DNA of 64,000 nucleotides from Gammaproteobacteria bacterium (lineage in GTDB: Bacteria > Pseudomonadota > Gammaproteobacteria > JAJDYQ01): positions 3,007 through 67,006 of the forward strand of contig JAJDYQ010000036.1 of assembly GCA_022825085.1 (NCBI GenBank). The letters run 5' to 3'. Every line of letters begins with the position of its first letter. Position 1 is the stretch's first letter. The translations under genes and the position numbers were made by a program. The notes below the pieces were generated by a model, which ran no database searches, was not told the origin of the DNA, and saw only the letters and a program-made list of their open reading frames with translations. Positions 4,862 through 55,302 of the stretch are shown piece by piece.

Positions 4862-4966
4862 ACGGTGTCAGCCTCGGTCCATTCAGGCGGGAGTTTTATG
4901 ATGCGACTCTTTTCAGAAAGGTCTTGAATATCAGGCCCCTGTGTCAGGTCTATATCCGTCACCGGT

Positions 4967-35368: not shown

Positions 35369-36523
35369 TCATGTGTCCGCTTCCAGCAGATGGAACATGA
35401 GGGAGGTGGTCAGGTTGTCTGCGGCATGTGACCCGCGCATTGCCAGTTTGGAATTGGTATGCGCTGACTCGACAATGTTTGTGAATTGTTGCTGTTGCTT
35501 CAGTGGGGGCACGGTAATCCAGATATTCTTTATGTCTTTATCGGATACTGCCGGGTAGTTTGCTCCCCTGACTTGTGACGATATTGTTTCTACGAAAAAC
35601 GGTGATGTGACATGGCTGAATAGATAAAGTGGTTCTATCAATTTACGGTTCGCTCGCAGTACGCAAAAGCCGGTTGATGCAATTTCACGATTCAGTTCAT
35701 CTGGCACGATTGCAACGGCATTCAGATTCGGTCTGACCGACGATACAAGGATATCATCCGTCCGAATTTCCTTTCTTGCCCGACTTGGCGCATCTTTGCC
35801 GAGCAGCAATCGGGTGGCGGCAATTCTCTTCTGAACGGTGTCAATACCGGAAATATCGACATAGCGAAATTGAGCTGAGGGAGTTTCTCCGGGGTTGCGG
35901 GTCTCTGTCTGCACGCAAACCTGCCCTATCCTGCATTTCGTCCACCCCATCGGATTGTCTGTCGGGTTGCCGAACATTTTGATGAACAGGGCCGGGATGA
36001 ATTCCTGCAGGCGTTCCTGTGCCTGTTTGCGCAGCCGCTCGATTTTGGCCGCCCGGTTCAGGATGTTGACGATGCGGCGTTGTTCGTTGAGCGGGGGGAG
36101 GGGAATTTCCAGATTTTGAACATCCCGCAACGTAATGCCCTTGACAGTCGCGCCTGTTCCCTTGTGTTCGATCTCTGGGCCAAGGTACTTCAGCGACCAG
36201 AACAAGAACTCGGGTAGCAGGCCTTCAGCAGGCACAACGGCCTTGATGTCTTGGTTTATCGCAAGATCGACATCGGCTATTGCGACTTTACCTAGACCTA
36301 CCCTTGTTACAAGGAGAACAGTCCCCGACGAAACAATTTTCGACGCCGAGTTATCCAGCCCTTCCTGAGAAATGAACTCATCCGTTTGCGAGATTCGATC
36401 TGCTCGAAAATCCTTCACGGTCGCCCACGGAATGTGTCCATTCCAATATTGCCGAATTTTCCGGGATGGTGTTCCCCCGCCCATGAATTGGCAAATCTCA
36501 CCGAGTGAGGTCGTTGATATCAT
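35369..36523 (-). CDS. hsdS: Type I restriction-modification specificity subunit HsdS
   Basis: 384 aa with two TRD halves, each ending in a conserved helix (PLPPLNEQRRIVNIL... / VPPLKQQQQFTNIV...). There is a 4-nt overlap with hsdM. Confidence 0.9.
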   Translation of the reverse strand: MISTTSLGEICQFMGGGTPSRKIRQYWNGHIPWATVKDFRADRISQTDEFISQEGLDNSASKIVSSGTVLLVTRVGLGKVAIADVDLAINQDIKAVVPAEGLLPEFLFWSLKYLGPEIEHKGTGATVKGITLRDVQNLEIPLPPLNEQRRIVNILNRAAKIERLRKQAQERLQEFIPALFIKMFGNPTDNPMGWTKCRIGQVCVQTETRNPGETPSAQFRYVDISGIDTVQKRIAATRLLLGKDAPSRARKEIRTDDILVSSVRPNLNAVAIVPDELNREIASTGFCVLRANRKLIEPLYLFSHVTSPFFVETISSQVRGANYPAVSDKDIKNIWITVPPLKQQQQFTNIVESAHTNSKLAMRGSHAADNLTTSLMFHLLEADT

Positions 36524-38151
36524 TGGGAAGTTGTTCTCCGAACCGCCTCGGCCAACCCCTCAGTCTCCCCCAGAATCTCCGTCTCAATCGCCCGCAATTC
36601 CTCCAGAATTTCCAGTGGGTCGCGGTGTTCTACCCTGGCCCGGTTTTGTGGTCGGTGGCGGTTGGCGCTGAGGTTGTAGTCGGCGGTGCGGATGGCGTCG
36701 GTGTCGGCGAACCACCATTTTTCTGTCCAGTCGGTGTTCGGGTCGCGGTCGTGCCATGTTATCCATTGTGCCTGCCGGTTGCGGAATGCTTCGGTCAGGG
36801 CGGGCAGGTCGTCTTCTTCGATGGGCTGGTCGTGGTTGGCGTCCAGTTTGAAGCCGTCGTTGTCGGCGTGCAGGAACATCACCCGCTCGGTTGTGCCGCC
36901 CTTGCGGAATATCAGTACCGAGGTTTTGACGCCGGAGTAGGGGTTGAATACGCCGCCCGGCAGTGACAGCACGGCTTCGATGGTGTTGTTTTCGAGCAGT
37001 TTGCGCCGCAGTTCGCGGTGTGCGCCGGTGGAGCCGAACAGTACGCCTTCCGGGACGACGACCCCGCAGCGGCCGCCTTCCTGCAACTGGTTGAGCATGT
37101 ATTGCAGGAACAGCAGTTCGGTCTGCGCCGTTTTGCCGATTTTCACGTCTTCGACAATGCGGTCCTTGTCCAGTCGGCCGGAGAATGGCGGATTGGCGAG
37201 GATGACATCGAATCCATTGGCGGGCAGGCCGAGTTCCGCTCTGGCGGTGCGGTCCAGTGAGCGGGTCAGGGCGTCACGCCGCAATATGTGGACATGGTCG
37301 AGGCCGCGCAGGGTCAGGTTCATGGTGGCGAGGCGTACCATCTGCGGATCAACATCGGTGCCATAGAAGGTGGCCTCGTGTAGCTGTCTGACCGCATCGC
37401 GGCTGAGTATGTCGCCCAGCCCGCGCCGGATTTTCTTGCCATCCGCCTCCATTTCTTCAATGCCGTCGGGCGAGGAGTTGGCGAGCCGGATGTGGTCCCA
37501 GGCGCCGACCAGAAAGCCGGCGGTGCCGGCCGCCGGGTCGTATATCGTTTCGCCAATGCGGGGATCGACCAGTCGGATCAGGGTGCGGATGACATGGCGC
37601 GGTGTGCGGAATTGGCCGAGTTCGCCGGCCTGCCGGATCTGGCGCAGCACATGCTCGAACAGGTCGCCCTTGGTATCTGCATCCACGCGGTGCAGATGCA
37701 GGTCGTTGAGCTGGCTGACTACCTGGGTGAGCACGGTCGGTTCGTCGATGATCAGCCGGGCACCGTCCATGAAGTCAGTCGCGCCATTGGCAGCGATTGC
37801 GGCATGGAATGCGAAGACTTCTTCGCGTACCCAGTTGACCAGCCGCTCGCCGTTCAGTGCATTCGCCCAGGATGACCAGCGCAGCCGTTCTCCCGGCACG
37901 GTGGTCTCGCCCGATTGGGGTGCATTGCGTGGGTCGCGCAGGGTCCATTTGTCTTTGAAGGCGCTGTTGTAGGGTGCGGTGCCCGGTCGCTTTGCCGCAC
38001 GTACCCGCGCCGCGTCTGCTGCTTCGTACATATAGAAATAGATCAGAAAACTGAGTTGTTCGGCGTTTTGTGCGGGGTTCGGGTAGCCGCCGCCGAACAG
38101 GTAATCGCGGATGCGGTCGATGCCGCGCCGCAGTTCGGGGGTCATGGGCAT
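36520..38151 (-). CDS. hsdM: Type I restriction-modification DNA methyltransferase HsdM (N6-adenine)
   Basis: 543 aa with motif I (YDPAAGTAGFL) and motif IV (ILANPPFSG). An HsdM N-terminal helical domain is present. Confidence 0.93.
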   Translation of the reverse strand: MPMTPELRRGIDRIRDYLFGGGYPNPAQNAEQLSFLIYFYMYEAADAARVRAAKRPGTAPYNSAFKDKWTLRDPRNAPQSGETTVPGERLRWSSWANALNGERLVNWVREEVFAFHAAIAANGATDFMDGARLIIDEPTVLTQVVSQLNDLHLHRVDADTKGDLFEHVLRQIRQAGELGQFRTPRHVIRTLIRLVDPRIGETIYDPAAGTAGFLVGAWDHIRLANSSPDGIEEMEADGKKIRRGLGDILSRDAVRQLHEATFYGTDVDPQMVRLATMNLTLRGLDHVHILRRDALTRSLDRTARAELGLPANGFDVILANPPFSGRLDKDRIVEDVKIGKTAQTELLFLQYMLNQLQEGGRCGVVVPEGVLFGSTGAHRELRRKLLENNTIEAVLSLPGGVFNPYSGVKTSVLIFRKGGTTERVMFLHADNDGFKLDANHDQPIEEDDLPALTEAFRNRQAQWITWHDRDPNTDWTEKWWFADTDAIRTADYNLSANRHRPQNRARVEHRDPLEILEELRAIETEILGETEGLAEAVRRTTSQ

Positions 38152-40277
38152 TATCCTTTCTCCATGCGGGAATCGTCCGGTTTGCCAAACACGGCGGCAT
38201 TGAGTTCGGTGATCAGCCGCTCCAGGGATTGCTCGCCGCCGAACACGCGCCGCGCCTGGTCGTAGCCTCCGAGTGCAGTGAACGGGTGACCGTCAAAGTC
38301 CCATTCGCCAAACGCATCCATCATGTCTGTCTTGACACGGCTGCCGATCAGCCCTACCCAGCGCATCTGTTCGGTGTTGAATCCTTTGTGTTCGCTTCGC
38401 CATGCCTCAAATTTCATGCCGATGGCAGCAGCGCGTGCTTCGTGTTCCGGCGGACGCACGATCCGACCGCTTTCGTCCAGAGTGAGCCAGTCGCGGCTCA
38501 TCGGGTCGATGTGGTCGTTGACATCCAGGGTCAGCAGTTGGTGGGGTTCACCGGGGGTGTAGCCGGGTTGCGTTTCGTGGATATGACTGCCGCTGACTGC
38601 TGCATCGTCGTCGCCGTGAAAATCGGTCACGCCGACAAAGTCGAAGATCGTGAATCCGGTCTTGTCGATATGCGGTGCCTTGCGGGTGCCGCGCCCGCGC
38701 ATCTGCCGGTACAGGATGGTGCTGCGGGTGAATCGCGCCATGACCAGATTGACCACTTCCGGGCAGTCAAAGCCGGTATCGAGCATGTTGACGCTGACCA
38801 GGATTTGCGGGAATTCTTCTTCCTTGAAGCGTTTGATGATGGCACCGGGATCGGGTGCCGGACCCCCACCGACATCGCTGACCACGAAGTCGGCGTAGCG
38901 CGTCGCCGGATGTGGTTTTTTGTCGGCGAAGTGTGCATCGAACATTTCTGCCAGTGTTTCGGCATGTCGTTTGGTCACCGCGAACACGATGGTTTTGCCC
39001 CAGGTGGGCCAGCGTCGGATGCCGTCGCGGCCCATGAAGCCCTTTTCGTGCGCATCACGAAATTCCCTTACCAGGGCGCGGTTGCGTTCGGGGATGGTGA
39101 ACCGGCGTTCCAGGGTGCGCGGATCGACCGTGATGGTGTCCTGGCCCAAACTGGCGAATTGTTTTTCAAATTCGGTACGGGTCTGTTCGTCCATCGCGCT
39201 CCAGTCGAGTTCGTTGCGGCTGACCGGGAATCCACCTTCGGCAGCGGTTTTGACGGTCATGGCCCGGTATATGCGGTAGGGGACCAGATGGCCTGCATGG
39301 ATGGCGGTGCGCAGGGTGTAGCGGTAGGTCGGTTCGGTGAGTTCGAAAAATCGCAGTGTGTCGCGCACGAATTGACTGTCTTCCGGGTCGGGGGAGTGGT
39401 CGGCCTCCGCGGTGCAGGGGGTGGCGGTCAGGCCGAGTTGAACGCCATCGAAATGTCGCAGTACGCCACTCCACTGGCCGTAGATGGAGCGGTGGCATTC
39501 GTCGGTGATGACCAGATCGAAGTAGCCGGGGGAGAGGTTGCGGTAGTCTGCAATCAGGGTTTGCAGGGTGGCGATGGTGATGCGTTTGGCGCGGTCAAAG
39601 CCACGACCGGGGCGCAGCACATGGCAGGGGTAGTCGCGCAGGTGGTCGGTAAAGGCGTCTTCGGCCTGCCGCGCCAGGGCGATGCGATCCACCAGAAACA
39701 GTACGCGGGTGATCCTGCCTGCCTCGAACAGTCGCTTGATGAAGGCGGTCGCTGTGCGGGTTTTGCCGGTGCCTGTCGCCATTTCGACCAGCAGTTTGCG
39801 TCGTCCACGGGAGACTTCGGCAGACAGTGCTTCAATACATTCTATCTGGTAGTCGCGGTTGACGATTTGCCGGTCGATGGCGATTGTGGCGAGGTCGCGG
39901 CGGGTCTGTCGTGCTGCGATGTGCCGTTCGAGATCGTCCTGGGCATAGAAGCCAGCGATTGGGCGGGCGTGGGCGTCTGTTTCCCGGTCCAGAAATCGCA
40001 CTTCTTCGCCATTTGACAGGAATACGAAGGGTACATTGAGCTGTTCGGCATAGTGGCACCCCTGGTCCTGCGCTGTTATGGGGTCGGTGCTGGCCCGCTT
40101 GGCTTCCAGTATTGCCATGGGCCGGCCCTGTCGGTCGCACAGCACATAGTCGGCCTGGGTGCCGTCGGGCAGGGTGTGTTCGAATAACACGCTGGAGCCG
40201 TCAGTCAGGTTCCAGCTTGCATCCTTGAGCAGGGCATCGATCTTGACTCGTGCGAAGGCTTCGGTGGTGCCGCTCAT
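38151..40277 (-). CDS. hsdR: Type I restriction endonuclease subunit HsdR (short form)
   Basis: 708 aa. N-terminal PD-(D/E)xK nuclease (DYVL...ILEAKRAS), Walker A MATGTGKT, DEAD-box ITDECHRS, helicase C motifs (MRGRGTR). Confidence 0.9.
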   Translation of the reverse strand: MSGTTEAFARVKIDALLKDASWNLTDGSSVLFEHTLPDGTQADYVLCDRQGRPMAILEAKRASTDPITAQDQGCHYAEQLNVPFVFLSNGEEVRFLDRETDAHARPIAGFYAQDDLERHIAARQTRRDLATIAIDRQIVNRDYQIECIEALSAEVSRGRRKLLVEMATGTGKTRTATAFIKRLFEAGRITRVLFLVDRIALARQAEDAFTDHLRDYPCHVLRPGRGFDRAKRITIATLQTLIADYRNLSPGYFDLVITDECHRSIYGQWSGVLRHFDGVQLGLTATPCTAEADHSPDPEDSQFVRDTLRFFELTEPTYRYTLRTAIHAGHLVPYRIYRAMTVKTAAEGGFPVSRNELDWSAMDEQTRTEFEKQFASLGQDTITVDPRTLERRFTIPERNRALVREFRDAHEKGFMGRDGIRRWPTWGKTIVFAVTKRHAETLAEMFDAHFADKKPHPATRYADFVVSDVGGGPAPDPGAIIKRFKEEEFPQILVSVNMLDTGFDCPEVVNLVMARFTRSTILYRQMRGRGTRKAPHIDKTGFTIFDFVGVTDFHGDDDAAVSGSHIHETQPGYTPGEPHQLLTLDVNDHIDPMSRDWLTLDESGRIVRPPEHEARAAAIGMKFEAWRSEHKGFNTEQMRWVGLIGSRVKTDMMDAFGEWDFDGHPFTALGGYDQARRVFGGEQSLERLITELNAAVFGKPDDSRMEKG

Positions 40278-40699
40278 GTTGCCGTCCAGGGATCGATGAC
40301 TTCTACATCCATGCCCTCGAAGTCGCGGATGTTGCGGGTGACCACTGCCATTTCCTGCGAACGTGCGATGGCAGCTATCTGGCAGTCGATTGGTGCGATG
40401 GGGCGACCGATGGCGCGGTGCATGGCGGCAATGTCTGCATATTGGCAGGCTGCAGCGCGGTCGAAAGAAAGGATTCGACCATTGAAATCTTCTCGCAAAA
40501 TTGCCTCGACCACGAGAGCAAGCGCATCCCGGCGTCGGCCCATAGGTAGAGTCGCAACACCATAGCGCAACTCCGCTTCACCAACCGCCGAGAAATATAA
40601 ATCTATCGCTGAACGTTCCTCGACCCACGCCTCTACCGCCGGATGCAGCGACGGACGCAGGAGTTCGGATACGACATTGGTGTCAAGCAGCCAGGACAC
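40274..40699 (-). CDS. vapC: PIN-domain ribonuclease toxin VapC (FitB-like)
   Basis: LLDTNVVSEL...AVGEAELRYG...DCQIAAIA...VVTRNIRDF, PIN acidic residues. I place the start at GTG 40699, 10 nt after the vapB stop. The stop overlaps the hsdR ATG (ATGA). Confidence 0.85.
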   Translation of the reverse strand: MSWLLDTNVVSELLRPSLHPAVEAWVEERSAIDLYFSAVGEAELRYGVATLPMGRRRDALALVVEAILREDFNGRILSFDRAAACQYADIAAMHRAIGRPIAPIDCQIAAIARSQEMAVVTRNIRDFEGMDVEVIDPWTAT

Positions 40700-40709
40700 G
40701 GTCGTATGC

Positions 40710-40958
40710 TTAATCGAAGGAAGGCAGTTCACGCCCCGGGCCGCGTGGTGGCAACTCCAGGTCCACTCCACCGAGGGGCTCGATCCGGGCTCGGATGATA
40801 CTCACAAGATTCCGGCAATCCGGTTTGTGACCGACAGCTTGGCGGAGGATCTGTCGGGCTTCCTCTTCCATTGAGCGGTGATGTTCCGCAGCCTGCACGC
40901 GCAGACGCGCCTTTACATCGTCGTCGAGATTGCGAATCGTGATGCTTGCCATGGTCAT
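40710..40958 (-). CDS. vapB: Antitoxin VapB (FitA/Arc-like ribbon-helix-helix)
   Basis: 82 aa, MASITIRNLDDDVKARLRVQAAEHHRSMEEEARQILR, a typical RHH antitoxin N-terminus. Confidence 0.8.
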   Translation of the reverse strand: MTMASITIRNLDDDVKARLRVQAAEHHRSMEEEARQILRQAVGHKPDCRNLVSIIRARIEPLGGVDLELPPRGPGRELPSFD

Positions 40959-40994
40959 GTCCCCTGATGGTTGCAGCGGTTTAATTTACACCTC

Positions 40995-41009
40995 GATTGC
41001 AGTGCAATC
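40995..41009. promoter_or_regulatory. Perfect inverted repeat upstream of vapB, candidate VapB operator
   Basis: GATTGC-AGT-GCAATC, located 37-51 nt upstream of the vapB start on the minus strand. Confidence 0.35.
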
Positions 41010-43142: not shown

Positions 43143-43186
43143 TGGCTGTATTTTTTCTCGGATGCCTGACGCCTGACTGAGTAGCG

Positions 43187-43237
43187 GCAATGGAGCGCAG
43201 CAGAGTTGCCGTCCGAGTGCAGCGCCTTGTTAATTGC
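43187..43237 (-). repeat. Cassette-junction repeat, copy A (left-hand attC-like half only)
   Basis: Plus strand GCAATGGAGCGCAGCAGAGTTGCCGTCCGAGTGCAGCGCCTTGTTAATTGC. It matches 46727-46768 in blocks of 22 and 14 nt. The TAA of the TTAAC core is the stop codon of the methyltransferase. Confidence 0.4.
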
Positions 43238-44780
43238 TGGCTCTGGCTTTGTACTTCGATTTTGATTCTGCAATACTCAGCTCGATCTGCCCTGTCAGGG
43301 TATCCACTTGTGCCGCTCCATGACTCTGGTATTGAGCAAGCTCACCAAGCTCTTTTGCAACTTCTTTTATTGATAGCCTCCTCAATATTTGTGTTGTTAT
43401 GGGGCGCTTTTCATCCCAGAAAATGATTGAATCAAAAAATTCCTGCGCAGGTTCGGATGTTATTAAGTGATAAACAAATTCCGCCTCTTTTTTTGTGTCA
43501 AATGACAAAAAGTTGACTGTATCGTCAAATACGACGGTTTTTCCGCTTAGTGGCCCTACAAGATTAAACTTTAGTCTTTTGTATAGACCCGATATTGCAA
43601 CTTTCCATCTTTTGAAGGAATATTCTCCAATACCGAAAACTGAAAAATCAGGCTTGTTTTTGTAAATGGAGCTTTTCCGATTATCAAGATATTCTCGGTG
43701 GCTCATCAAATATTCCCATGTATTCGGCGCACTATTCTTTATAATTGCAGTATCTTCTCCAACATGCCTCTGTGTTATTAAAACCACTTTTCGGTATGCC
43801 CCTATTCTCCCGTTCCCTACATCCGAGCTTTTTAATAACGGATAAATATACTCGTCTTCACATTCTATATTTTCGCCAAGCCCATTCTTGTATCCATTAT
43901 TAGATGGCTCTAACTCCATTATTTTTGAGCAGTCATGTTTTATACCCGACCTCCAAATATATTTCGGATCTTGTCCTCTCAGGTGTCTCCATTTTTCATA
44001 TTTGGTTACATCATTGACTACATACCCGTCTCTTTCTCCAATAATATGTGAAGACATTGAGGAGTCCAGGGATTTATATACTTCACAATCCGCATTTCCT
44101 GTATCTGTTGTCAAAATGAACAGACATGCTTCCACTGATGCACCAAAATATGTTTTGGCATTGACAGGGTATATATGACCGAAGAAACGATGATTTGGGT
44201 TTTGCCTTACTTGCCGCATGACTTTTCTGGCAACAGAGTATTTACAAAGAAATGCTATTGCGCCTTCTCTTTGCGAGAGCCATTTCACATGTTGCAACAG
44301 CATCCATTCTGAAATATCAAAATTTGCGGAACCTGTAATAGCTTCGATGCCTTTCCTGTTTTGAAAGTTAGATTTATCTGGCAGATTCTGGCTATTGAGC
44401 AACCCTAGTTCGCTGCTTGTCACCCAGGGTGGATTGCCAATTATGAGAAGGTATCCAGGCAATCCAGCAATCACATTATCCCAATTTGTACTAAAGAAAT
44501 CTGCCTCATTGACTATCGGACTATTTTTACCAGAATCCGTCCCTGACAATGATCTCGCTTCTTTTACATAAAGAGGATTAATTTCAAAACCAAGAATTTT
44601 TGATTGTTTAAACCCTTCATGAGAGGCATGAATAAATGCGCCTTTTCCACACGTTGGTTCTATAATAACATCCGGATTTATTCCATGATTTCGTTTCAGA
44701 ATATCAACAACCTTTCTGGCTAAATCAATGGGGGTTTGAAAATCTCCAAACTGCCATTTATTAATGGTCTTCTTTGCCAT
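43230..44780 (-). CDS. Type II N6-adenine DNA methyltransferase (gamma class, TaqI/Eco57I-like)
   Basis: 516 aa with motif I IIEPTCGKGAFI upstream of motif IV IIGNPPW. The C-terminal half is a presumed target-recognition domain. Confidence 0.85.
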   Translation of the reverse strand: MAKKTINKWQFGDFQTPIDLARKVVDILKRNHGINPDVIIEPTCGKGAFIHASHEGFKQSKILGFEINPLYVKEARSLSGTDSGKNSPIVNEADFFSTNWDNVIAGLPGYLLIIGNPPWVTSSELGLLNSQNLPDKSNFQNRKGIEAITGSANFDISEWMLLQHVKWLSQREGAIAFLCKYSVARKVMRQVRQNPNHRFFGHIYPVNAKTYFGASVEACLFILTTDTGNADCEVYKSLDSSMSSHIIGERDGYVVNDVTKYEKWRHLRGQDPKYIWRSGIKHDCSKIMELEPSNNGYKNGLGENIECEDEYIYPLLKSSDVGNGRIGAYRKVVLITQRHVGEDTAIIKNSAPNTWEYLMSHREYLDNRKSSIYKNKPDFSVFGIGEYSFKRWKVAISGLYKRLKFNLVGPLSGKTVVFDDTVNFLSFDTKKEAEFVYHLITSEPAQEFFDSIIFWDEKRPITTQILRRLSIKEVAKELGELAQYQSHGAAQVDTLTGQIELSIAESKSKYKARASN

Positions 44781-44783
44781 AAC

Positions 44784-45449
44784 TCATCGAATCCTTGTGA
44801 TGCCAGATACCTCTCCAGCTTTCTGTATAATTCGACTATACTGAAGTCGCCACTGAAGAGCATTTGATATCGTCAAGTATCCTTGATTTGGTGGAGATTC
44901 CAGGATTTTGTCTGCAAGCTGTTCTGCACCAATTTCATCTACAGGTAAATTTCGTTCTATGATAAATGCTATTACATCATCCTTGTTTCCTTCTCTTTCA
45001 AGTATCTCCAGAAGCCCTTTGGTGGTTTGAAAATCTGCTGTGCGCTCTTTTTCTGCAAAAATCGTATGCTGCATAGTTAGCCTTCCGGTTCTTCTTTGGT
45101 CATCGTCAGATTTTTCATATACAAACACAAGCAGATGATAGTCCAATCCGAATATTTTCTGTGACGCAGACTTGAAAGGACATGATGACTGAGGTTGTTT
45201 AATACTTGTTGCTTTTATATCAACTCCAAGATCAGGCAAGTCTATCCCCGATGCAGAATTTCCTTGCTCATATTCATATTCTTCTGCGAGATAAGAAGTA
45301 AACTTCTGCTCCAGATATGTGCCCACAGCTTTACCGTCTGTCACGCCATAGAGAGAAGGTTCATCATGCGAGGTCTCCATGCCGGCGAAATTTGACGCCT
45401 CTTCTTGAAGCGCTTCTATTGTCAGTATTTGTTTCATATGTTTCCCCAT
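44784..45449 (-). CDS. Putative type II restriction endonuclease (PD-(D/E)xK), partner of the 516-aa methyltransferase
   Basis: 221 aa ending 3 nt before the MTase start. Candidate catalytic motif SGIDLPDLGVDIKAT (D...D-x-K). The ATG at 45437 has the better RBS (GGGGAAAC). Confidence 0.55.
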   Translation of the reverse strand: MGKHMKQILTIEALQEEASNFAGMETSHDEPSLYGVTDGKAVGTYLEQKFTSYLAEEYEYEQGNSASGIDLPDLGVDIKATSIKQPQSSCPFKSASQKIFGLDYHLLVFVYEKSDDDQRRTGRLTMQHTIFAEKERTADFQTTKGLLEILEREGNKDDVIAFIIERNLPVDEIGAEQLADKILESPPNQGYLTISNALQWRLQYSRIIQKAGEVSGITRIR

Positions 45450-45459
45450 GTTTTTTTGC

Positions 45460-45553
45460 GGCCAATGTCTGGTTCAGCCGTGCACCGAAGGCGCGTTGGA
45501 TGGAGGGGTGCATGCAGCCTAGCCTTGAAACGAACTGGAACCATTTGTTATGC
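45460..45553 (-). repeat. attC-like imperfect palindrome (junction E)
   Basis: Minus strand: GCATAAC-AAATG-GTTCCAG...CTGAAC-CAGAC-ATTGGCC. L'' GTTCCAG pairs with L' CTGAAC, leaving one unpaired C, and both spacers are 5 nt. R' has A instead of the canonical G. The TAA in R'' is the stop of the DUF3800 gene. Confidence 0.45.
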
Positions 45554-46678
45554 ATTCATTATAATGGAGTTATACATCAGTTGTTGACCAATAAACTGAA
45601 TGTATTCATGCATGCCTTCCAGCAAGGGTATTCCTTCCTTCGACCGAGAGTGTAACTCTTGCAGGAGTACCGCGTTTCGTTGGGCTTCCAATTCAGAGAG
45701 ATCAATATAATTGATGTCAGGGAATAAGCTCCCCGGGACTATAATTTCAGAGATATACTTTCTCCATTTTAAGGCATGTTTGTCTGAGTTATTGGTTATG
45801 GCGAAAATGGAAGCTGCTGCTATAGTATCGGCTAGTTGGATGCCATGATAGGTTTTTGAGGCTACCAGCTTAATTGAGCCAGATAAATTAAATGTAATAG
45901 GATGGTCGTCACCAGCAATGCTTAAATATTTTTTATCTTCACGGTTGATCATCACTTTGTATAGCTGCTGATCATGGTGTAATGGTTTAGCATCATCACA
46001 AATGGCCGTGAGCTGTTCATATTCTTGTCCCCACGCTGCTAACAATGTGAACAAAGAGCTATCAGTCAAGTCTAATATCCATTTATCTAGCCCATTATCA
46101 GCCAATGAGTCTAGCTCTTGTTTTATAGATGACTTTTTGTTTTCGGCAAACTCCCGAATCTGTACCAATATTGGTGAATTTTCTGGATGAGTAGAGCTGC
46201 TGAAGATATTTTCTAGGTTTACTTCTTCATCGCTCCTCATCAATGATTCAAACTCTAAAAGTATCTCTTCTGCGCCGGCTCCTCGCGTCGCCAACTCGAT
46301 ATATAAAATGTTTGCAATAAATCTATGGAAATTTATGTCATAAAACATGGAGCTTTGTTCAGATATGCATGGCTCAAAAATGTACTCAAAAAATTTGCTA
46401 GCTAATGCATACTTTTTATTAGAAAGAGATATTTTTATCCTTCCTCTAAATTTTCTCATTATTTCGGATATTGCCTTCCTTCCTTTGCTGGATTTTACAA
46501 GCTGCCTTCCCTTTAATTCACTGTTCTGTATGCTATATTTTTTGATTAGGTACTCAACAAAGTCTTTTGCTTCGTCGTCATTTGTTGCAACGGAACTGTA
46601 TGAAAAAAATTCTTGATTTGGACTTAGGAGGTTATTTCCTGTAAAACCTGATTCATCAAAATATATTTTTTGAGACAT
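45548..46678 (-). CDS. DUF3800 domain protein
   Basis: 376 aa with the N-terminus MSQKIYFDESGFTGNNLL (the DUF3800 hallmark xYxDESG). A single-gene block between two junction repeats. Confidence 0.7.
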   Translation of the reverse strand: MSQKIYFDESGFTGNNLLSPNQEFFSYSSVATNDDEAKDFVEYLIKKYSIQNSELKGRQLVKSSKGRKAISEIMRKFRGRIKISLSNKKYALASKFFEYIFEPCISEQSSMFYDINFHRFIANILYIELATRGAGAEEILLEFESLMRSDEEVNLENIFSSSTHPENSPILVQIREFAENKKSSIKQELDSLADNGLDKWILDLTDSSLFTLLAAWGQEYEQLTAICDDAKPLHHDQQLYKVMINREDKKYLSIAGDDHPITFNLSGSIKLVASKTYHGIQLADTIAAASIFAITNNSDKHALKWRKYISEIIVPGSLFPDINYIDLSELEAQRNAVLLQELHSRSKEGIPLLEGMHEYIQFIGQQLMYNSIIMNA

Positions 46679-46726
46679 CTTGAACTCTATGGTTGTTTGA
46701 ATGCATAATCCCCAAGCTCACCGATG

Positions 46727-46768
46727 GCAATAGAACGCAGCAGAGTTGTCGACAGCACCTTGTTAGGT
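46727..46768 (-). repeat. Cassette-junction repeat, copy B (left-hand attC-like half only)
   Basis: Plus strand GCAATAGAACGCAGCAGAGTTGTCGACAGCACCTTGTTAGGTG. On the minus strand ACCTAAC fits RYYYAAC, and its TAA is the stop codon of the MTase-glycosylase gene. Confidence 0.4.
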
Positions 46769-48730
46769 GTTTTGATTGCGATAGCGATAAAGATACCAAG
46801 CGCCAATGCTTTTATATGGTTCCCAGCGTTTTGATATTTTTATAATTGAATTAATATCATCTTGCGGAACTTTGTAAACACTGCTTATTATCTTCTTTAG
46901 TGCCAAGTCATGTTGAGGGAACACATTAAGCCTAGCGAGCCCAAAAAGCAGGTACATATCTACCGTCCAATCTCCGATGCCTTTTATTTTTTTCAACTCA
47001 TAGCGAACTACATCATCACTTTCAGTTTGTAAATCTCTAAGTATCAGGCTTTTATCATTTATCTTGGTGCTGAGGTCATAAATATACTCATACTTTCTAT
47101 CTGATATGCCAGATGATTTAACATTTTCTCTGATTATTTTAAGGAAATTACATGCTGAGATGCTTTTGCCGCTGAATAATCCCTTAAATTTCTTGATTAT
47201 TGAGTCGGCGGCTAATTTTGATAACTGCTGACTAATGATCGCATCAACAAGAAATTCAAACCCGGTATGATTGCCAATCAAGTTGCATGGCCCTACCTCA
47301 TTTATTATTTTAGCTAATTTTTTATCTTCTTTGTGCAAGTAAAAGATAATATCTGCATAACTGCTTTCTTCTACGCCATTCGATGTGTTACTCAATCGAG
47401 AGCTCGAAGCATTGTTTCTGAGAAACCATTCTTGAGAAAATCTTCTTAGCTCATCTGGAGAGCATTGTGGGAGAAAAAAGGAAAAATCGTAAATAGTACT
47501 ATGATTCGGATTTGGGTAACTTGGGGAATGTTCATTATCCATATCTAGTGAACCAAAAAGAGTTTGCTGCTTGCTATTAATCCTTTTGCCAAGAACCTTT
47601 TTGGGGGTGACAAAATCTCCCATAGGTTCCAGTCCTTTCTCAAAGCGATTAAGAGTCGTCTTAATCGCCTCAATACTGTTGTCAACTCCAATCCAGTTCC
47701 TCTGCATTTTATCTGCCACTGCAAGGGTAGTGCCTGACCCTGCAAAGCAATCAAAAATTAAATCTCCAGGATTAGATGATGCTGATACTATTCGTTTCAA
47801 TAAGTCTGGATTCTTCTCGGTAGGATACCCGGTTATTTTCACGTTTTGATTGTGCGCATCACGAAAGTCTAGCCAGATATCCTGTACTCCAACGCCAGAG
47901 TGTTCATCCAAGTATATTTTTCTTCGAGGATTTCCGTTTTTTGACCAGTAAATTTCGCCTCTGACATCCATTTCATCTAATAACTTAGGCGTATACTGCC
48001 AATGTTTGCCAGGCGGTGGCATTTTTCCTCGCCAAGGCTTACCCGTTTCACCATTTCGTGTACCGGGTGCATGAACTGGAACCTTCATAAACCTGCGACC
48101 TGTATTTTCTTCGACATATTGATATTCTTTCTGGCTTTCTTCTGATAAGGGTACAGTCTGTTTGTTCCATATGTAATTTCTGGTTTTCGTATAGAATAGG
48201 ATGAAGTCTGCAATATTCCCATATGCTTTACGAGTGTAATTTTTCGGATTGCATTTTTTACGGATAATTAAATTTCTATAGTTTTCTGATCCAAATATCT
48301 CATCCATTATAATTTTCATTTCGAAAATCATTTTTTCATCTAAGTGCAAATATATAGAACCATTATTAGATAGGAGTTTATGCAGTAGAATAAGACGTGC
48401 CCGCAAGAATTCTACGAAAGCCGCGCCAGACAATGTGTCATCATATGCTTGCGATTGTTTTCGAGAAAGAAAACGACTTTGGGTTGCAAATGGTGGATCA
48501 ATATAGATAAGACTAATTTTTCCACAAACTGCCTTATCATCCAAAAGCGTCCTTAACACATCAAGATTATCTCCAAAATACAGCCTTTTCCCGGTTGTGC
48601 TTGAATTGAACGCATCAAAACAGGGGGGTTGTATTTTTAGCAATTCTTCTTCGCTTATCTTATCTTTGTAGGCAAGATGTACCTTGCCATTTAATTTTGC
48701 GTTATCTTTCTTTGGAATTCCTGTTGCCAT
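46763..48730 (-). CDS. DNA methyltransferase (beta class, N6A/N4C type) fused to a C-terminal AlkA-like HhH-GPD DNA glycosylase domain
   Basis: 655 aa. Motif IV SLIYIDPPF lies near the N-terminus and motif I DLIFDCFAGSGTT at about residue 325. The last ~190 aa read LKKIKGIGDWTVDMYLLFGLARLNVFPQHDLALKK (HhH + Gly-rich loop + Asp), as in AlkA/3-methyladenine glycosylase II. Confidence 0.8.
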   Translation of the reverse strand: MATGIPKKDNAKLNGKVHLAYKDKISEEELLKIQPPCFDAFNSSTTGKRLYFGDNLDVLRTLLDDKAVCGKISLIYIDPPFATQSRFLSRKQSQAYDDTLSGAAFVEFLRARLILLHKLLSNNGSIYLHLDEKMIFEMKIIMDEIFGSENYRNLIIRKKCNPKNYTRKAYGNIADFILFYTKTRNYIWNKQTVPLSEESQKEYQYVEENTGRRFMKVPVHAPGTRNGETGKPWRGKMPPPGKHWQYTPKLLDEMDVRGEIYWSKNGNPRRKIYLDEHSGVGVQDIWLDFRDAHNQNVKITGYPTEKNPDLLKRIVSASSNPGDLIFDCFAGSGTTLAVADKMQRNWIGVDNSIEAIKTTLNRFEKGLEPMGDFVTPKKVLGKRINSKQQTLFGSLDMDNEHSPSYPNPNHSTIYDFSFFLPQCSPDELRRFSQEWFLRNNASSSRLSNTSNGVEESSYADIIFYLHKEDKKLAKIINEVGPCNLIGNHTGFEFLVDAIISQQLSKLAADSIIKKFKGLFSGKSISACNFLKIIRENVKSSGISDRKYEYIYDLSTKINDKSLILRDLQTESDDVVRYELKKIKGIGDWTVDMYLLFGLARLNVFPQHDLALKKIISSVYKVPQDDINSIIKISKRWEPYKSIGAWYLYRYRNQNT

Positions 48731-48743
48731 TTCTCACCTATGC

Positions 48744-49613
48744 CTAAGATTGTAACCAATCTTCCGTGATTCGTTCTGAGAACATTCTCAATGTCACAAC
48801 TTTTACCTTTCCATCCCATGAGTTCTCAATATAGGCATAGTCACGCCACATAGAACCGAGAAGTAAACCTGGGCCGTCATTTAGGAATATGACCTTGAGG
48901 TTCATGCCTTTAGATTCGGCATAACCAAGAATCTCACTGGCACAATCACGATATTGGCCAGTTCGGTCATCTTCTTGTGCACCCCCTCTATCTGAATCGT
49001 AGCGAGTAAGGCCTACTGCGACTGGATTGCCATCATTAATCAATACAAAGTCTACTGGGCGGTCAGGCTTTGGATAATCGCCAAATAATTCGCCTAGAAT
49101 TACATCTTTTCCTGCTCGTTCTGGCCCAATTATATCTAAATGTGAATATTGCTCTCGAACGATATTAAATAGCCGTTCTGTCAGATCGTAACCTTTCTTA
49201 CCCCTATCCTTATACTCCCAGAGTACGGCGCATAATGCCTCATCTGGCATTGGACGAGATTTAAATTTTGACTGCACTTCAGTAATTGGTCGAAATCTGT
49301 AACCAAATTGATCGCATATGCTTTGGGCGGCAGATTTCTTTTTCAACATTTCCACAGGTGTTTCCGGGCTAGCATATTTTCTGAACACTCGATATAGCTG
49401 TATTCGCATCCACTGTGGTTTCGTTTCTGATATTTCCAGAAATAAATTGGTAGAGGAATGAGATGACTCCAATAAATGCCCAAATGTAACCAACACAGGT
49501 TTATATAATTCACATGCTCGTGGTAACACATCAGGGTAATACTCTCCAGTGGATAAAGTAATCCAAATATGTCCATCTTCCTGATAATCGCCAAATGATT
49601 TTTCTCTATTCAA
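48744..49613 (-). CDS. Hypothetical protein in the endonuclease position of the MTase-glycosylase cassette
   Basis: 289 aa with a TTG start, ending 13 nt before the MTase-glycosylase start. I cannot name a motif with confidence (PVDFVLINDGNPVAVGLTRYDSDRGGAQEDD is the most conserved-looking stretch). Confidence 0.4.
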   Translation of the reverse strand: MNREKSFGDYQEDGHIWITLSTGEYYPDVLPRACELYKPVLVTFGHLLESSHSSTNLFLEISETKPQWMRIQLYRVFRKYASPETPVEMLKKKSAAQSICDQFGYRFRPITEVQSKFKSRPMPDEALCAVLWEYKDRGKKGYDLTERLFNIVREQYSHLDIIGPERAGKDVILGELFGDYPKPDRPVDFVLINDGNPVAVGLTRYDSDRGGAQEDDRTGQYRDCASEILGYAESKGMNLKVIFLNDGPGLLLGSMWRDYAYIENSWDGKVKVVTLRMFSERITEDWLQS

Positions 49614-51381: not shown

Positions 51382-51458
51382 TTCAATCCTCCTTTGGGAT
51401 TTCCAGTTCAGGGATGCTCCGGCCAGTTGGGGAGCTTCTCCTGATAGTAAATGAATTG

Positions 51459-51640
51459 TTATATCGGTTGCAAGTCGGCATAGGTGATCACCAGCCATTT
51501 CGGGCCGGCCTCGGCAAAATGGACTTCAATACGCGCATGTGGCCCGGCACCTTCCATATTGGCCACCATGCGCCAGATTTTCTGTGGTTTATCCGCTGGC
51601 CCAGCCTGCAGCACCGCTGTTGCGTCTGATCGACTAAAAA
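51459..51640 (-). pseudogene. Duplicated fragment of the uvrD 3' end
   Basis: 51460-51562 is almost identical to 53129-53231 (two mismatches seen), and similarity decays over the next ~50-80 nt. It encodes ...NMEGAGPHARIEVHFAEAGPKWLVITYADLQPI, the same C-terminus as the intact UvrD. Confidence 0.7.
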
Positions 51641-51790: not shown

Positions 51791-52768
51791 TTGAAAATGA
51801 CAGACGTAAAAGGTCCATTTATCTTTGTCGCGATAGTGATCGTGGGTTGTCTTGGTGCTGGTGTCGCGCTTGCTACCTTCACCGAACAGGTGACCGCGCT
51901 GGTGGTCTCGGTAGTGCTTGCATGCGCTGTTTCCTCACTTCTCTACGGAATTCTGGGTGGTGTCTCACAGGCTGGCTTTAACTTTGGCCCACTCAGTATG
52001 GGTGGCAGCGCAGCAGTGCTTCTCGGCAGCGTTTTCCTGTTTAATAAGGCGCTGGAGCCGCAACTCAGAGAGATTCGCGATTATGATGTGGAGGTGGCTG
52101 TGGAGCAGGCTGTTGCCGCAGCGCTGCAGGATGCCAGGTTCGATTTCTACCAACACGTGGAACCGAACACGAACTGGTTTGCTGTCAACAGGGCGACGGC
52201 AGTTCCGACCAGGATTGAGTTTAGGGATCCTCAAGGGACTGGCTCTGTGAAAGTCGTGCATCGTCCATACAATCCGATCTTGCGTCTGAAGCTTGAGAAG
52301 CAAGACGAAAATTCCTTTTTGGTTCTCGGAGTCAATGCAGATTCGGGCGATAGCCTGGGTTATATCCAGTCGCAACATCTGAGCAATATCATTGGCTCAT
52401 CCGAGGAGCTTACGCCAAGCAGGATATATGGGCCTCAAAAACTGCATCTCTCGCTCGCAGGAGAACTTGCCGAGGATACGCCGCGGGAGTGGGGGTCAAG
52501 TGATCGCTGCCTGGGCAGAAGCCTGCCCATGCAGCTCCGTGTTGTCAGCTTCCGCCGAGGCTACGCAAACTACCAGGTCTCCGTCTGTGGCACCTCTGAT
52601 GATGACGCCGTCAACCACGAATCGAGCCTTTCCAAAGGTGATGCCGAACTCGTTAGCTTTGAAATCGAGGGCGAGACGCGGCATTTCCTCATTGCGGTGC
52701 TTGCGGCCAACCATACGGGGTCCCCGTTATGGTCTAGCTTCCTGGTCATCGAGATGGTGGAAAGCTGA
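51791..52768 (+). CDS. Hypothetical membrane protein (3 N-terminal TM helices + soluble domain) between the uvrD 3' repeats
   Basis: 325-aa ORF with a TTG start. I recognise no motif. Confidence 0.45.
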   Translation: MKMTDVKGPFIFVAIVIVGCLGAGVALATFTEQVTALVVSVVLACAVSSLLYGILGGVSQAGFNFGPLSMGGSAAVLLGSVFLFNKALEPQLREIRDYDVEVAVEQAVAAALQDARFDFYQHVEPNTNWFAVNRATAVPTRIEFRDPQGTGSVKVVHRPYNPILRLKLEKQDENSFLVLGVNADSGDSLGYIQSQHLSNIIGSSEELTPSRIYGPQKLHLSLAGELAEDTPREWGSSDRCLGRSLPMQLRVVSFRRGYANYQVSVCGTSDDDAVNHESSLSKGDAELVSFEIEGETRHFLIAVLAANHTGSPLWSSFLVIEMVES

Positions 52769-53095: not shown

Positions 53096-53127
53096 ATTTT
53101 TCGCGCCCGCCAATATTGAACGAGTCA

Positions 53128-55302
53128 CTATATCGGTTGCAAGTCGGCATAGGTGATCACCAGCCATTTCGGGCCGGCCTCGGCAAAATGGACTTCAATG
53201 CGGGCATGTGGCCCGGCACCTTCCATATTGGTTACCATGCCTTCGCCGAATTTTTTGTGATTTACCCGCTGACCCAGCCTGAACGGGCTTTGTGCTGCTG
53301 CTGAAGGCCGGTCTGTGGGCAGGCCATCATGGGCCGCCTGTGTGATGCCGATCCGGGGGCGGATTTCATTGAGGAGATTGGCCGGTATTTCTTTTGCAAA
53401 CCGGGATATTTCCCGATAACCCTCGCTACCGTGCAGGGTTCTGGATTCGGCATAGCTCAACACCAGTTCTTCACGGGCCCGTGTAATCCCGACATAGCAG
53501 AGCCGGCGTTCTTCTTCAAGCTCGGACCCGTCGCCGGAATGGCGTGAGTGAGGGAACAGTCCTTCTTCCATTCCGCATAAAAAAACCAGTTGAAACTCCA
53601 GTCCCTTGGCACTGTGCAGTGTCATTAATTGCACACTGGCTTCTCCCGCAGCACTTTGTCCTTCTCCGGCTTCCAGTGCTGCATGGGTCAGAAATGCGGT
53701 CAGCATATCCATGTCCGGCTGTCCATCCGGGTCATAGCCATGGGTGAACCCGCGTGCAGCACTGACCAGCTCTTCCAGGTTTTCCAGCTTTTGTTCGGCC
53801 TTTTCGCCCTTGCCTTTGGCATAGTGGCTGGATAGCCCGGAGTGTGCAATGACATGGTTCACTTGCTCGTGTAATGGTGCGGTTTCTATCTGCCCGGCCA
53901 TGGAATCAATGAGTTTCAGAAAAGCAAGCAGGGCGTTGCTGGCCCGTGCCGTGAGTCGATCCCCGCCGGTTAACGAGGTTGCAGCCCGCCACAGGGTGAT
54001 GGATTGTTCGCGTGCGACCTGCCGAATGGTTTCCATTGTGCGCTCGCCAATACCGCGGCTGGGCATGTTCACTACACGTTCAAATGAGGCATCATCGTTG
54101 CGGTTGTTAATCAGGCGCAGGTAGGCGAGAGCGTCCTTGATCTCGGCTCTCTCGAAGAACCGCAGCCCCCCATATACACGATACGGTATGTCCTTGGCGA
54201 CGAGCTGCTCTTCAAACAGGCGTGACTGGGCATTGGAACGGTACAGTATGGCGATATCGGCATATGACTGCCCCTTGTCAACCGCCTGTTGTATGCGTTC
54301 GATGACAAAGCTCGCCTCTTCGCGGTCATTCCAGGCAGCATACAGCTCAATCGGTGCGCCGTCGCGGTCATTGGTCCAGAGTTTTTTGCCCATGCGACCG
54401 GAGTTGTTATCGATAAGTGCATTGGCGGCCGCCAGGATATTGCCGGTGGAACGATAGTTCTGCTCCAGTCTGATGGTCCGTGCCTGTGAGTAGTCTTTGG
54501 TAAAATTCAGGATGTTTTCGATGCGTGCGCCGCGCCAGCCATAAATGGACTGATCATCATCCCCCACAACAAAAGGATCGATCTGTTCACCTGCCAGCAG
54601 GCGTATCCAGGCATATTGAATCGCGTTTGTATCCTGAAACTCATCGGCCAGAATATGGATGAAACGTTCCTGATAGTGCTTCAGTAAGTCCGGCGTGTCG
54701 CGTAAAGTCTCCTGTGTGCGCAACAGCATCTCGGCGAAGTCAACCAGCCCTGAGCGCTGACAGGTTTCCTCATAGGCGCGATAAATGTCAATCGTCTGTA
54801 TCTGAATGGGGTCACCATAGTCGTTGAGATGCTGGTGACGGCGCCCTTCATCCTTTTGCGCATTGATGAACCATTGCACCTGACGGGGCGGATAACGCGA
54901 CTCATCCACTTCAAGCGACTTCATCACTCGTCGAATCAGCCGGTACTGGTCATCTGCATCCAGCACCTGAAAATCCTCAATCAGTCTGGCTTCACGCCAG
55001 TGCTGGCGGAGAAAGCGGTGCGCCAGTCCGTGAAATGTGCCAATCCACATCGCGCCGACAGGGTGGCGCAGTATGGCTTCCGCCCGGCTGCGCATTTCGT
55101 GGGCCGCCTTGTTGGTAAAGGTAACCGCCATGATTTGGTACGGGGACACGCCTGCAACCTCAATCAGCCAGGCTATGCGGTGAATCAGGACGCGGGTTTT
55201 GCCGCTGCCGGCTCCTGCCAGAACCAGCACCGCACCATCGGAGCATGAGACTGCTTCACGCTGAGCAGGATTCAGTTCCTCCAATATATGAGAGACATCC
55301 AT
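53128..55302 (-). CDS. uvrD: DNA helicase II
   Basis: 724 aa. MDVSHILEELNPAQREAV...VLAGAGSGKTRVLIHRIAWL is collinear with E. coli UvrD, and the SF1 motifs are present throughout. Confidence 0.93.
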   Translation of the reverse strand: MDVSHILEELNPAQREAVSCSDGAVLVLAGAGSGKTRVLIHRIAWLIEVAGVSPYQIMAVTFTNKAAHEMRSRAEAILRHPVGAMWIGTFHGLAHRFLRQHWREARLIEDFQVLDADDQYRLIRRVMKSLEVDESRYPPRQVQWFINAQKDEGRRHQHLNDYGDPIQIQTIDIYRAYEETCQRSGLVDFAEMLLRTQETLRDTPDLLKHYQERFIHILADEFQDTNAIQYAWIRLLAGEQIDPFVVGDDDQSIYGWRGARIENILNFTKDYSQARTIRLEQNYRSTGNILAAANALIDNNSGRMGKKLWTNDRDGAPIELYAAWNDREEASFVIERIQQAVDKGQSYADIAILYRSNAQSRLFEEQLVAKDIPYRVYGGLRFFERAEIKDALAYLRLINNRNDDASFERVVNMPSRGIGERTMETIRQVAREQSITLWRAATSLTGGDRLTARASNALLAFLKLIDSMAGQIETAPLHEQVNHVIAHSGLSSHYAKGKGEKAEQKLENLEELVSAARGFTHGYDPDGQPDMDMLTAFLTHAALEAGEGQSAAGEASVQLMTLHSAKGLEFQLVFLCGMEEGLFPHSRHSGDGSELEEERRLCYVGITRAREELVLSYAESRTLHGSEGYREISRFAKEIPANLLNEIRPRIGITQAAHDGLPTDRPSAAAQSPFRLGQRVNHKKFGEGMVTNMEGAGPHARIEVHFAEAGPKWLVITYADLQPI

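Follow-up and report, generated by a model that had tools for sequence, protein, structure and literature searches.

The window analysed here is a stretch of 64,000 nucleotides (nt) from a gammaproteobacterial contig (JAJDYQ010000036.1), and it carries on its minus strand a restriction-modification (R-M) cassette whose DNA methyltransferase is fused to a DNA glycosylase domain. The cassette has a single-operon layout, endonuclease (R) then methyltransferase (M): a gene for a BstEII-family type IIP endonuclease (48744–49613, minus strand; 289 amino acids [aa], TTG start), assigned by a phmmer match in the Protein Data Bank (PDB), is followed after an intergenic spacer of 13 nt (48731–48743, minus strand) by the gene for the 655-aa fusion protein (46763–48730, minus strand; stop codon at 46763–46765). 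The two-gene R-M cassette proposed in the initial annotation of this DNA was borne out, with both open reading frames (ORFs) exact and co-oriented. Within the fusion protein, and all on the minus strand, residues 1–446 (47393–48730) form a beta-class N6_N4 methyltransferase module of the M.BstEII/M.EcaI family, residues 447–455 (47366–47392) a linker to which AlphaFold gave low confidence by predicted local distance difference test (pLDDT), and residues 456–655 (46766–47365) a short AlkA/Mag-type helix-hairpin-helix (HhH)-GPD glycosylase domain. The cassette lies in an islet of about 7 kb with a GC content of 0.35–0.41, compared with about 0.55 in the flanks, and TRAP-transporter genes stand on either side. 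We conclude that this low-GC defence islet holds a type IIP R-M operon of the BstEII/EcaI family that was acquired horizontally, and we have hardly any doubt about the identity of the operon or about its architecture with a methylase-glycosylase fusion.

The 289-aa ORF, to which the initial annotation could give no family name and which it thought might be an unknown nuclease or a processor of abasic (AP) sites, proved to be a full-length homolog of the crystallised type IIP endonuclease BstEII (9ibq; phmmer against the PDB, E = 1.4e-83, 51% identity over 282 residues, positions 5–288 aligned with 3–286). The R-M core thus belongs to an already characterised family, BstEII/EcaI, an outcome that the initial annotation had allowed for, and the glycosylase appendage alone is unusual. 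No Pfam, NCBIfam or PADLOC model matched the BstEII homolog of the window. BstEII-like nuclease homologs adjoin the cognate methyltransferase in most of 80 related genome loci, fused or unfused, and the R-then-M order with short spacers was also found in loci L001, L009, L011, L013 and L073. We located the prototype on plasmid pBSO1 of Geobacillus stearothermophilus ATCC 12980 (NZ_CP128495.1), where the gene at 4768–5631 encodes a protein 100% identical to 9ibq over 284 residues; in RefSeq, this product of a crystallised enzyme's gene (WP_080997636.1) is named only 'hypothetical protein'. The BstEII system (9ibq/9ic8, pBSO1) resembles the window cassette in being a two-gene type IIP system with a beta-class methyltransferase, R being 51% and M 60% identical (the latter over residues 1–374 of the window protein). 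However, the prototype genes are convergent with an HTH gene upstream, and the prototype methyltransferase (WP_053532338.1, 'site-specific DNA-methyltransferase') has 431 aa and no glycosylase, whereas in the window R and M are co-oriented and M carries a glycosylase of about 200 aa. A fused relative from Ca. Nitrospira nitrosa bears the annotation 'Modification methylase EcaI (modular protein)'. Because R matches BstEII, M matches the pBSO1 methyltransferase and this relative is annotated EcaI, we assign the cassette to the BstEII/EcaI type.

We take EcaI to be an isoschizomer of BstEII with the recognition site GGTNACC. To judge from these homologies, R presumably cleaves G^GTNACC and M would make N6-methyladenine (m6A) within the same site. 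GGTNACC occurs 20 times in the window, compared with 10.2 expected, and not once within the islet. The absence of depletion fits a recent acquisition and implies that many host sites would need protection; avoidance of the site as a sign of activity was ruled out for the window.

The methyltransferase module was recognised by PF01555 (N6_N4_Mtase) at residues 72–358 (E = 1.1e-46, 160.1 bits against a cut-off of 26.7) and by the PADLOC model MTase_II (PDLC03354, E = 6.8e-140) at residues 12–379 only. The stretch IYIDPPF begins at residue 75, and motif IV (DPPF, residues 78–81; 48488–48499, minus strand) precedes motif I (FAGSGTT, residues 329–335; 47726–47746, minus strand), the loop that binds S-adenosylmethionine (AdoMet), which is the order of the beta class. 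DPPF is invariant in the family alignment, as are G331, S332, G333 and T334. The earlier description of a complete beta-class enzyme therefore holds for the motifs, while their spacing is about 250 residues rather than about 260. Residues 405–446, an HxPIxDF strand and a helix, are common to unfused and split relatives.

The C-terminal region had been read as an HhH-GPD domain of the AlkA type, and Pfam, PDB and Foldseek searches all placed about 200 residues in that superfamily, with AlkA/Mag character. PF00730 scored 32.2 bits against a gathering score of 26.2, and phmmer against the PDB retrieved S. pombe Mag2 (4b21, 8e-23), B. halodurans 2h56 (1e-20), D. radiodurans AlkA2 (DrAlkA2; 2yg8, 4e-18) and Mag1 (3s6i, 9e-18), with identities of 28% to Mag2 and 26–29% to the other three. 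In an AlphaFold model of the 655-aa protein built on 42 homologs, the block-mean pLDDT of the domain was about 84–93, with two exceptions: a single 10-residue block (68) and the five C-terminal residues (70). Foldseek aligned the domain with Mag2 at TM 0.86–0.88 and rmsd 2.0–2.2 Å, and with the four structures together at TM 0.74–0.88 (target-normalised; 0.74–0.80 without Mag2) and rmsd 2.0–4.2 Å; for Mag2, Mag1 and DrAlkA2, TM was 0.76–0.88. The linker region, residues 442–456, had pLDDT below 50, and free-living glycosylases start at fused positions of about 455–461. The N-terminal TBP-like domain of E. coli AlkA is not present: the AlkA equivalog model PRK10308 gave 15 bits against a cut-off of 229, over profile positions 204–273 only. 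Since that model fails, the domain is 'AlkA-type' in a broad sense and not an AlkA ortholog, and it corresponds to the short DrAlkA2/Mag1 form. DrAlkA2, Mag1, Mag2 and 2h56 share with it the fold, the lack of the AlkA N-terminal domain, the GIG-W motif and the Asp; they differ in being free-standing repair proteins, whereas the window domain is the C-terminus of an R-M methyltransferase.

The HhH-GPD signature LKKIKGIGDWTVDMYLLFGLARLNVFPQHD (residues 579–608; 46907–46996, minus strand) ends in Asp608 (codon at 46907–46909), the Asp of QHD608LAL, which aligns with the conserved HhH-GPD Asp of Mag2, 2h56, DrAlkA2 and Mag1. The catalytic Asp had been described as retained, and D608 showed 100% conservation across 117 fused relatives and 86 free-living ones (the free-living set comprising proteins of 195–220 aa with less than 76% identity to any fused protein); G584, G586, W588 and D608 together are 97–100% conserved. 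Strongly conserved in both sets are Q501/Q502/S504, S543/K546, G584/G586, W588, D608 and W636/P638, and no fused-specific substitution was found at any conserved position in this comparison of 117 with 86 proteins. Because all conserved residues are equal in fused and free-living proteins, the domain looks like a catalytically competent alkylbase glycosylase and an ordinary member of the repair family. DrAlkA2, which has the same short architecture, removes 3-methyladenine (3mA) and 7-methylguanine (7mG), and also 1-methyladenine (1mA) and 3-methylcytosine (3mC) (PMC5128194), and other glycosylases of the superfamily likewise remove such methylated bases (PMC6746446). The likely substrates of the fused domain would be 3mA and 7mG, possibly with 1mA and 3mC.

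By whole-protein search, we found the fusion in at least 119 protein clusters (90% level; NCBI, ENA, JGI and Logan) with 51–100% identity, all combining PF01555 with PF00730; most have 640–690 aa, a few are shorter partials, and megabase contigs are included. The clusters come from Nitrospira, Desulfobacterales, Poribacteria, Entotheonella, Kiritimatiellae, Polyangiaceae and Armatimonadetes, and the first six of these taxa also have fused genes among species-representative genomes. Among the 50%-identity representatives of an exhaustive methylase-only search, the fused group amounts to one representative (P0094) and one fragment, and the next closest methylases (455, 458 and 428 aa) are without the glycosylase domain. 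The fusion is real and conserved; it is restricted to a single clade, and the R-M family in general can do without it. As regards how often such fusions occur, which the initial annotation had raised, the window protein is not unique and belongs to a widespread clade, and the R-M family is also found unfused, or split, with the glycosylase in a gene of its own. In two fused loci from metagenome-assembled genomes (MAGs) of different phyla, Nitrospira and Desulfobacterales (L007, 4115–4998; L008, about 4123–4985), the BstEII-like gene is split by a frameshift in the same place (about residue 137–141) and the methyltransferase-glycosylase gene is intact in both; these split genes could reflect decay of the nuclease with retention of the fusion, or sequencing errors in the MAGs. 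No nuclease was found in the fused locus L012 (Polyangiaceae).

When the domain alone was searched against the protein collection, no fused protein was retrieved, its own parent included, probably because candidates chosen by shared words miss domain-level matches in longer proteins; surveys of this kind therefore undercount fusions. The top stand-alone matches were rejected as proof of a housekeeping origin, many being fragments or remnants of fusion genes: of the 120 top domain matches, 22 shared 80% identity or more with a fused protein, and their alignments start in the linker or within the methyltransferase. True free-living genes, of about 200–209 aa, are 65–74% identical to some fused domains. 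The three of them that we checked on long contigs all lie in ordinary housekeeping neighbourhoods, and close free-living relatives are single-copy genes annotated 3-methyladenine glycosylase II. A neighbour-joining tree was discarded as proof of a single fusion event; fused and free-living proteins interleave in it and bootstrap support is nil.

The linkage between R-M genes and glycosylase also occurs without fusion. In Stutzerimonas chloritidismutans AW-1 (NZ_AOFQ01000011.1), R and M genes encode products 69% and 61% identical to those of the window, and behind them lies a separate HhH-GPD gene of 202 aa; its ATG overlaps the stop codon of M (ATGA), and its product is only about 30% identical to the fused domain. 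This resolvase-R-M-glycosylase unit recurs with 93–94% DNA identity next to Abi_C on Burkholderiaceae chromosomes and on ParA/Rep plasmids, and its recurrence in unrelated chromosomal and plasmid contexts indicates a mobile module. That the separate glycosylase of locus L073 is a resident host gene, as its host-like GC content (0.596 versus 0.51) had suggested, was ruled out by this recurring unit. Moreover, homologs of the split-module glycosylase (73–93% identity) directly follow a D12-class (Dam-like) adenine methylase and a SacI-family endonuclease; on Aeromonas and Comamonas plasmids, the glycosylase of this SacI-type R-M system is 92.6% identical to the split-module one. Metagenomes contain the SacI-type trio, and so do plasmids from cultured strains of Aeromonas caviae and Comamonas sp., for which RefSeq lists the three genes in tandem (A. 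caviae pKAM339_3, NZ_AP024943.1, 2807–5570; Comamonas sp. C11). These adenine methylase, SacI-family nuclease and 3-methyladenine glycosylase genes sit on small MOBQ plasmids. One of these plasmids also carries blaGES-24 and aac(6')-Ib, so that clinical resistance plasmids are among the vehicles of the module.

When the BstEII-type and SacI-type modules are compared, only the glycosylase ORF is similar in DNA, which rules out that the glycosylase is part of a common backbone hosting different R-M insertions. Relatives at 41–56% identity have ordinary neighbours (SIMPL, CoA-transferase and others), so that the glycosylase family as a whole is not R-M-associated. R-M operons have taken up two sub-branches of a housekeeping glycosylase family, one of which has moved between two unrelated R-M systems. 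Three architectures are observed: the glycosylase is fused to M, translationally coupled after M (BstEII-type), or placed after R (SacI-type), and all three linked methyltransferases are adenine-N6 enzymes. The at least 119 fused clusters, the second lineage and the SacI-type module argue that the linkage is selected rather than accidental.

In the mechanism that we favour, R would cut unmethylated GGTNACC of incoming DNA and M would methylate adenine at host sites, while the tethered glycosylase would act outside restriction, in base-excision repair of the host's own DNA. The glycosylase would remove ring-N-methylated bases: 3mA, 7mG and, plausibly, the DrAlkA2 substrates 1mA and 3mC as well. 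AdoMet chemistry would be the source of these lesions, and the most plausible route is side reactions of the methyltransferase, in which a flipped-out adenine would expose N1 and N3. Fusion or translational coupling would match the dose of glycosylase to that of methylase, and a mobile R-M system would thereby bring damage control to a new host. Taken as a whole, this combination of R-M identity with a glycosylase that repairs methylation damage is the best explanation, although we hold it to be about as apt to fail as to stand; the repair role by itself is, on our analysis, just as evenly poised. A stronger version, in which adenine-N6 R-M methylases make toxic 1mA or 3mA often enough for dedicated glycosylases to have been recruited repeatedly as erasers of the methylases' own off-target chemistry, is put forward tentatively as somewhat less probable.

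Methylase-made lesions are favoured by analogy with Vsr-Dcm, DNMT-ALKB2 and AlkB-dependent mutagenesis induced by M.SssI. Vsr, the product of 'V' genes in R-M systems, is an endonuclease linked to Dcm-type 5-methylcytosine (m5C) methyltransferases, and Mig.Mth is an HhH-GPD T/G mismatch glycosylase encoded next to the MthTI R-M system on plasmid pFV1. In Vsr-Dcm and Mig.Mth, a repair enzyme is likewise coupled to a methyltransferase against damage that methylation promotes, and Mig.Mth is also of the HhH-GPD type. However, they deal with deamination of 5-methylcytosine (T:G) and accompany C5-cytosine methylases, whereas the window system joins an adenine-N6 methylase covalently to an AlkA/Mag glycosylase of the alkylpurine type. 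As Rosic et al. reportedly found in 2018, eukaryotic DNMTs co-evolve with the ALKB2 dealkylase. To our knowledge, off-target ring-N methylation is documented for C5-cytosine methyltransferases and not for N6-adenine ones, which tells against the favoured mechanism. M.SssI expressed in E. coli raised AT mutations in the absence of AlkB (bioRxiv 10.64898/2026.01.24.701492). The DNMT-ALKB2 and M.SssI/AlkB pairs are alike in that alkylation lesions made as methyltransferase by-products travel with alkylation repair, and unlike in that they involve cytosine-C5 enzymes, oxidative dealkylation and co-occurrence at the genome level, with no operon or fusion.

Several other observations weigh against a repair role. 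Most EcaI-type methylases are unfused (in cyanobacteria, Chloroflexota, Verrucomicrobiota and others), as are a 72%-identical relative with an identical R-M layout (P0120) and the prototype; since most BstEII/EcaI-type systems are without a glycosylase, the need for one is not general. Adenine methylases are the partners in all three linkages, but three cases cannot establish adenine specificity. The interdomain geometry is of low confidence (pTM 0.53). Mag2, the best structural match, has retained the Asp too, although it is inactive and binds AP sites, and so the Asp alone is no proof of activity. Finally, the position of the cassette in a defence islet, beside a second R-M system and a DUF3800 gene, fits a role in defence too.

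The rival that fares best, though we think it unlikely, is that the glycosylase is a passenger repair gene linked to an addictive mobile R-M system, which would help the host against environmental or endogenous alkylation with no tie to the chemistry of M; the fusion would then reflect the mere loss of a stop codon between adjacent genes. The split arrangement, M (438 aa)-ATGA-glycosylase (201 aa), is indeed collinear with the fusion, and one stop-codon loss would suffice. The domain is indistinguishable from housekeeping relatives at conserved positions, distant relatives are housekeeping genes (some beside the repair genes Ogt, UDG, Fpg and Vsr), and the split-module glycosylase has a GC content of 0.60, compared with 0.51 for R and M, which indicates a mosaic origin. 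Mere linkage, however, does not account well for the precise splicing of the same glycosylase ORF 3' of two unrelated R-M operons with no shared flanks, for the independent capture of a second lineage by the BstEII family, or for a fusion kept intact across at least 119 clusters. Repeated capture by R-M systems exceeds the expectation for hitch-hiking, in a comparison for which non-R-M mobile contexts were not surveyed systematically.

Repair of the enzyme's own off-target lesions was one of two readings offered in the initial annotation; the other, in which the glycosylase is an effector against invading DNA, was less favoured by our results. As a second arm of restriction, the glycosylase would excise modified or unusual bases of invading phage or plasmid DNA that escapes BstEII-type cleavage and so create lethal abasic sites, with the host being without the target base. 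Repair is favoured over such an effector because a complete, conventional nuclease is already present, because the fused domain is 65–74% identical to free-living glycosylases in housekeeping, non-defence contexts, and because no fused-specific change, and no substitution of the kind that alters specificity, was found at conserved positions. Precedents for an effector exist: Brig1 shows that glycosylase-based defence occurs, and HhH-fold EndoIII/Ogg-like domains sense hypermodified phage DNA in END nucleases (PMC12191111). The pockets of AlkA-type enzymes are broad, the cassette shares its low-GC islet with the second R-M system and the DUF3800 gene, and an Abi_C gene follows the split module in some loci. 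R.PabI, Brig1 and the END nucleases resemble the window system in having a glycosylase or glycosylase-fold domain within a defence locus. The folds of R.PabI and Brig1 are unrelated to the HhH-GPD domain considered here. In the END nucleases, the glycosylase-fold domain is joined to a nuclease and its catalytic residues are gone, and the C-terminal domain of END was unlike the predicted structure of Brig1 (PMC12191111), whereas the window domain keeps its Asp and is fused to a methylase with a separate nuclease. In addition, the partner of the glycosylase is a methylase or the end of an operon and never a nuclease fusion, and neither glycosylase was matched by any PADLOC defence model at a threshold as lax as E ≤ 1. 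On balance, we consider a restriction arm rather improbable.

It is more improbable still that the domain is a non-catalytic, Mag2-like binder of DNA or abasic sites that tethers the methyltransferase to DNA or repair intermediates. The HhH motif is a DNA-binding element, and the best PDB matches by both sequence and structure are to S. pombe Mag2, which its depositors described as a homolog of glycosylases in complex with abasic or damaged DNA. However, the active Mag1 and DrAlkA2 and the uncharacterised 2h56 are nearly as similar (26–29% versus 28% identity; TM 0.74–0.80), conservation is 97–100% at Asp608, W588 and the remaining positions of the pocket and the HhH motif, as expected of an enzyme, and the close free-living relatives are the single-copy genes annotated 3-methyladenine glycosylase II. 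An assembly or frameshift artefact that joined two genes, which the existence of the split gene order in other genomes might suggest, is refuted with near certainty, as the identical 655-aa protein occurs on two independently assembled contigs, one of them from Logan, the at least 119 clusters are alike, including those on megabase contigs, and the glycosylase is in frame in loci L007–L013.

The R-M core belongs to a known, structurally characterised family, and linkage of a repair enzyme with a methylase has a precedent in m5C systems. In agreement with the initial annotation, which knew of no module with such a methyltransferase-AlkA fusion, we found no description of one, nor of R-M-linked alkylbase glycosylases in general, in the searchable literature or in PADLOC, REBASE being outside the search; databases give the fusion proteins only generic 'DNA methyltransferase' names. 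R-M systems are usually seen as two-function units that cut and protect, and among their repair accessories only Vsr is well known. In the present cases, R-M systems with an adenine methylase come with a glycosylase for alkylation repair, in three architectures and two glycosylase lineages, on plasmids and islands and in many phyla, and such mobile elements may carry along a means to repair the damage that methylation does. If the lesions are made by the methylase, the idea of by-product damage would extend to bacterial adenine methylases, and the pairing would be an adenine-methylase counterpart of the Dcm-Vsr and DNMT-ALKB2 partnerships. It would also point to a hidden cost of carrying R-M systems, with Asp608 and DPPF mutants as a genetic handle. 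Because the linkage recurs in three architectures, a self-inflicted alkylation cost of methylases is directly testable, and Stutzerimonas chloritidismutans AW-1 and Aeromonas caviae KAM339 are candidate isolates for such tests. If a second restriction arm were the truth, the system would represent a new defence by a methyltransferase-tethered glycosylase.

The second R-M system of the islet is a complete type II module at 43230–46678 of the window, co-oriented with the first. Its endonuclease has 221 aa (NCBIfam NF052465, 6.5e-105; labelled PF27258 NspV) and its methyltransferase 516 aa (PADLOC MTase_II, 2e-167), and the DUF3800 gene (376 aa) sits between the two R-M modules. TTCGAA, presumably the NspV site, occurs 9 times in the window, compared with 17.3 expected. 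Directly 3' of both islet methyltransferase genes lies a shared element (43186–43211 and 46726–46751, extended to about 45 nt), which reads TAACAAGGYGCTG...CGRCAACTCTGCTGCGYTCYATTGCC on the gene strand and is present in two copies, with none expected by chance. An integron attC site or a terminator was considered for this element and set aside, as there are two copies only and no stable fold (z of about 0 to 1.25); the lack of a stable hairpin makes either identity improbable. The element may be a module boundary or a recombination scar.

Elsewhere in the window, a direct repeat of 128 nt (91%; 51444–51571 and 53113–53240) duplicates the 3' end of a UvrD/Rep-like helicase gene (53128–55302, minus strand). 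The repeat pair brackets a 1.67-kb insert with a 325-aa ORF (51791–52768, plus strand), which looks like an insertion with target duplication. The segment at 36000–41000 is GC-rich (0.57–0.64 versus about 0.52) and includes a 708-aa ORF (38151–40277, minus strand) with the helicase-like motifs TGTGKT and DECH, followed by a PIN/VapC-like ORF (40274–40771) and a small antitoxin-like ORF (40710–40958), all three as read from their translations. This segment is possibly another defence or mobile islet.

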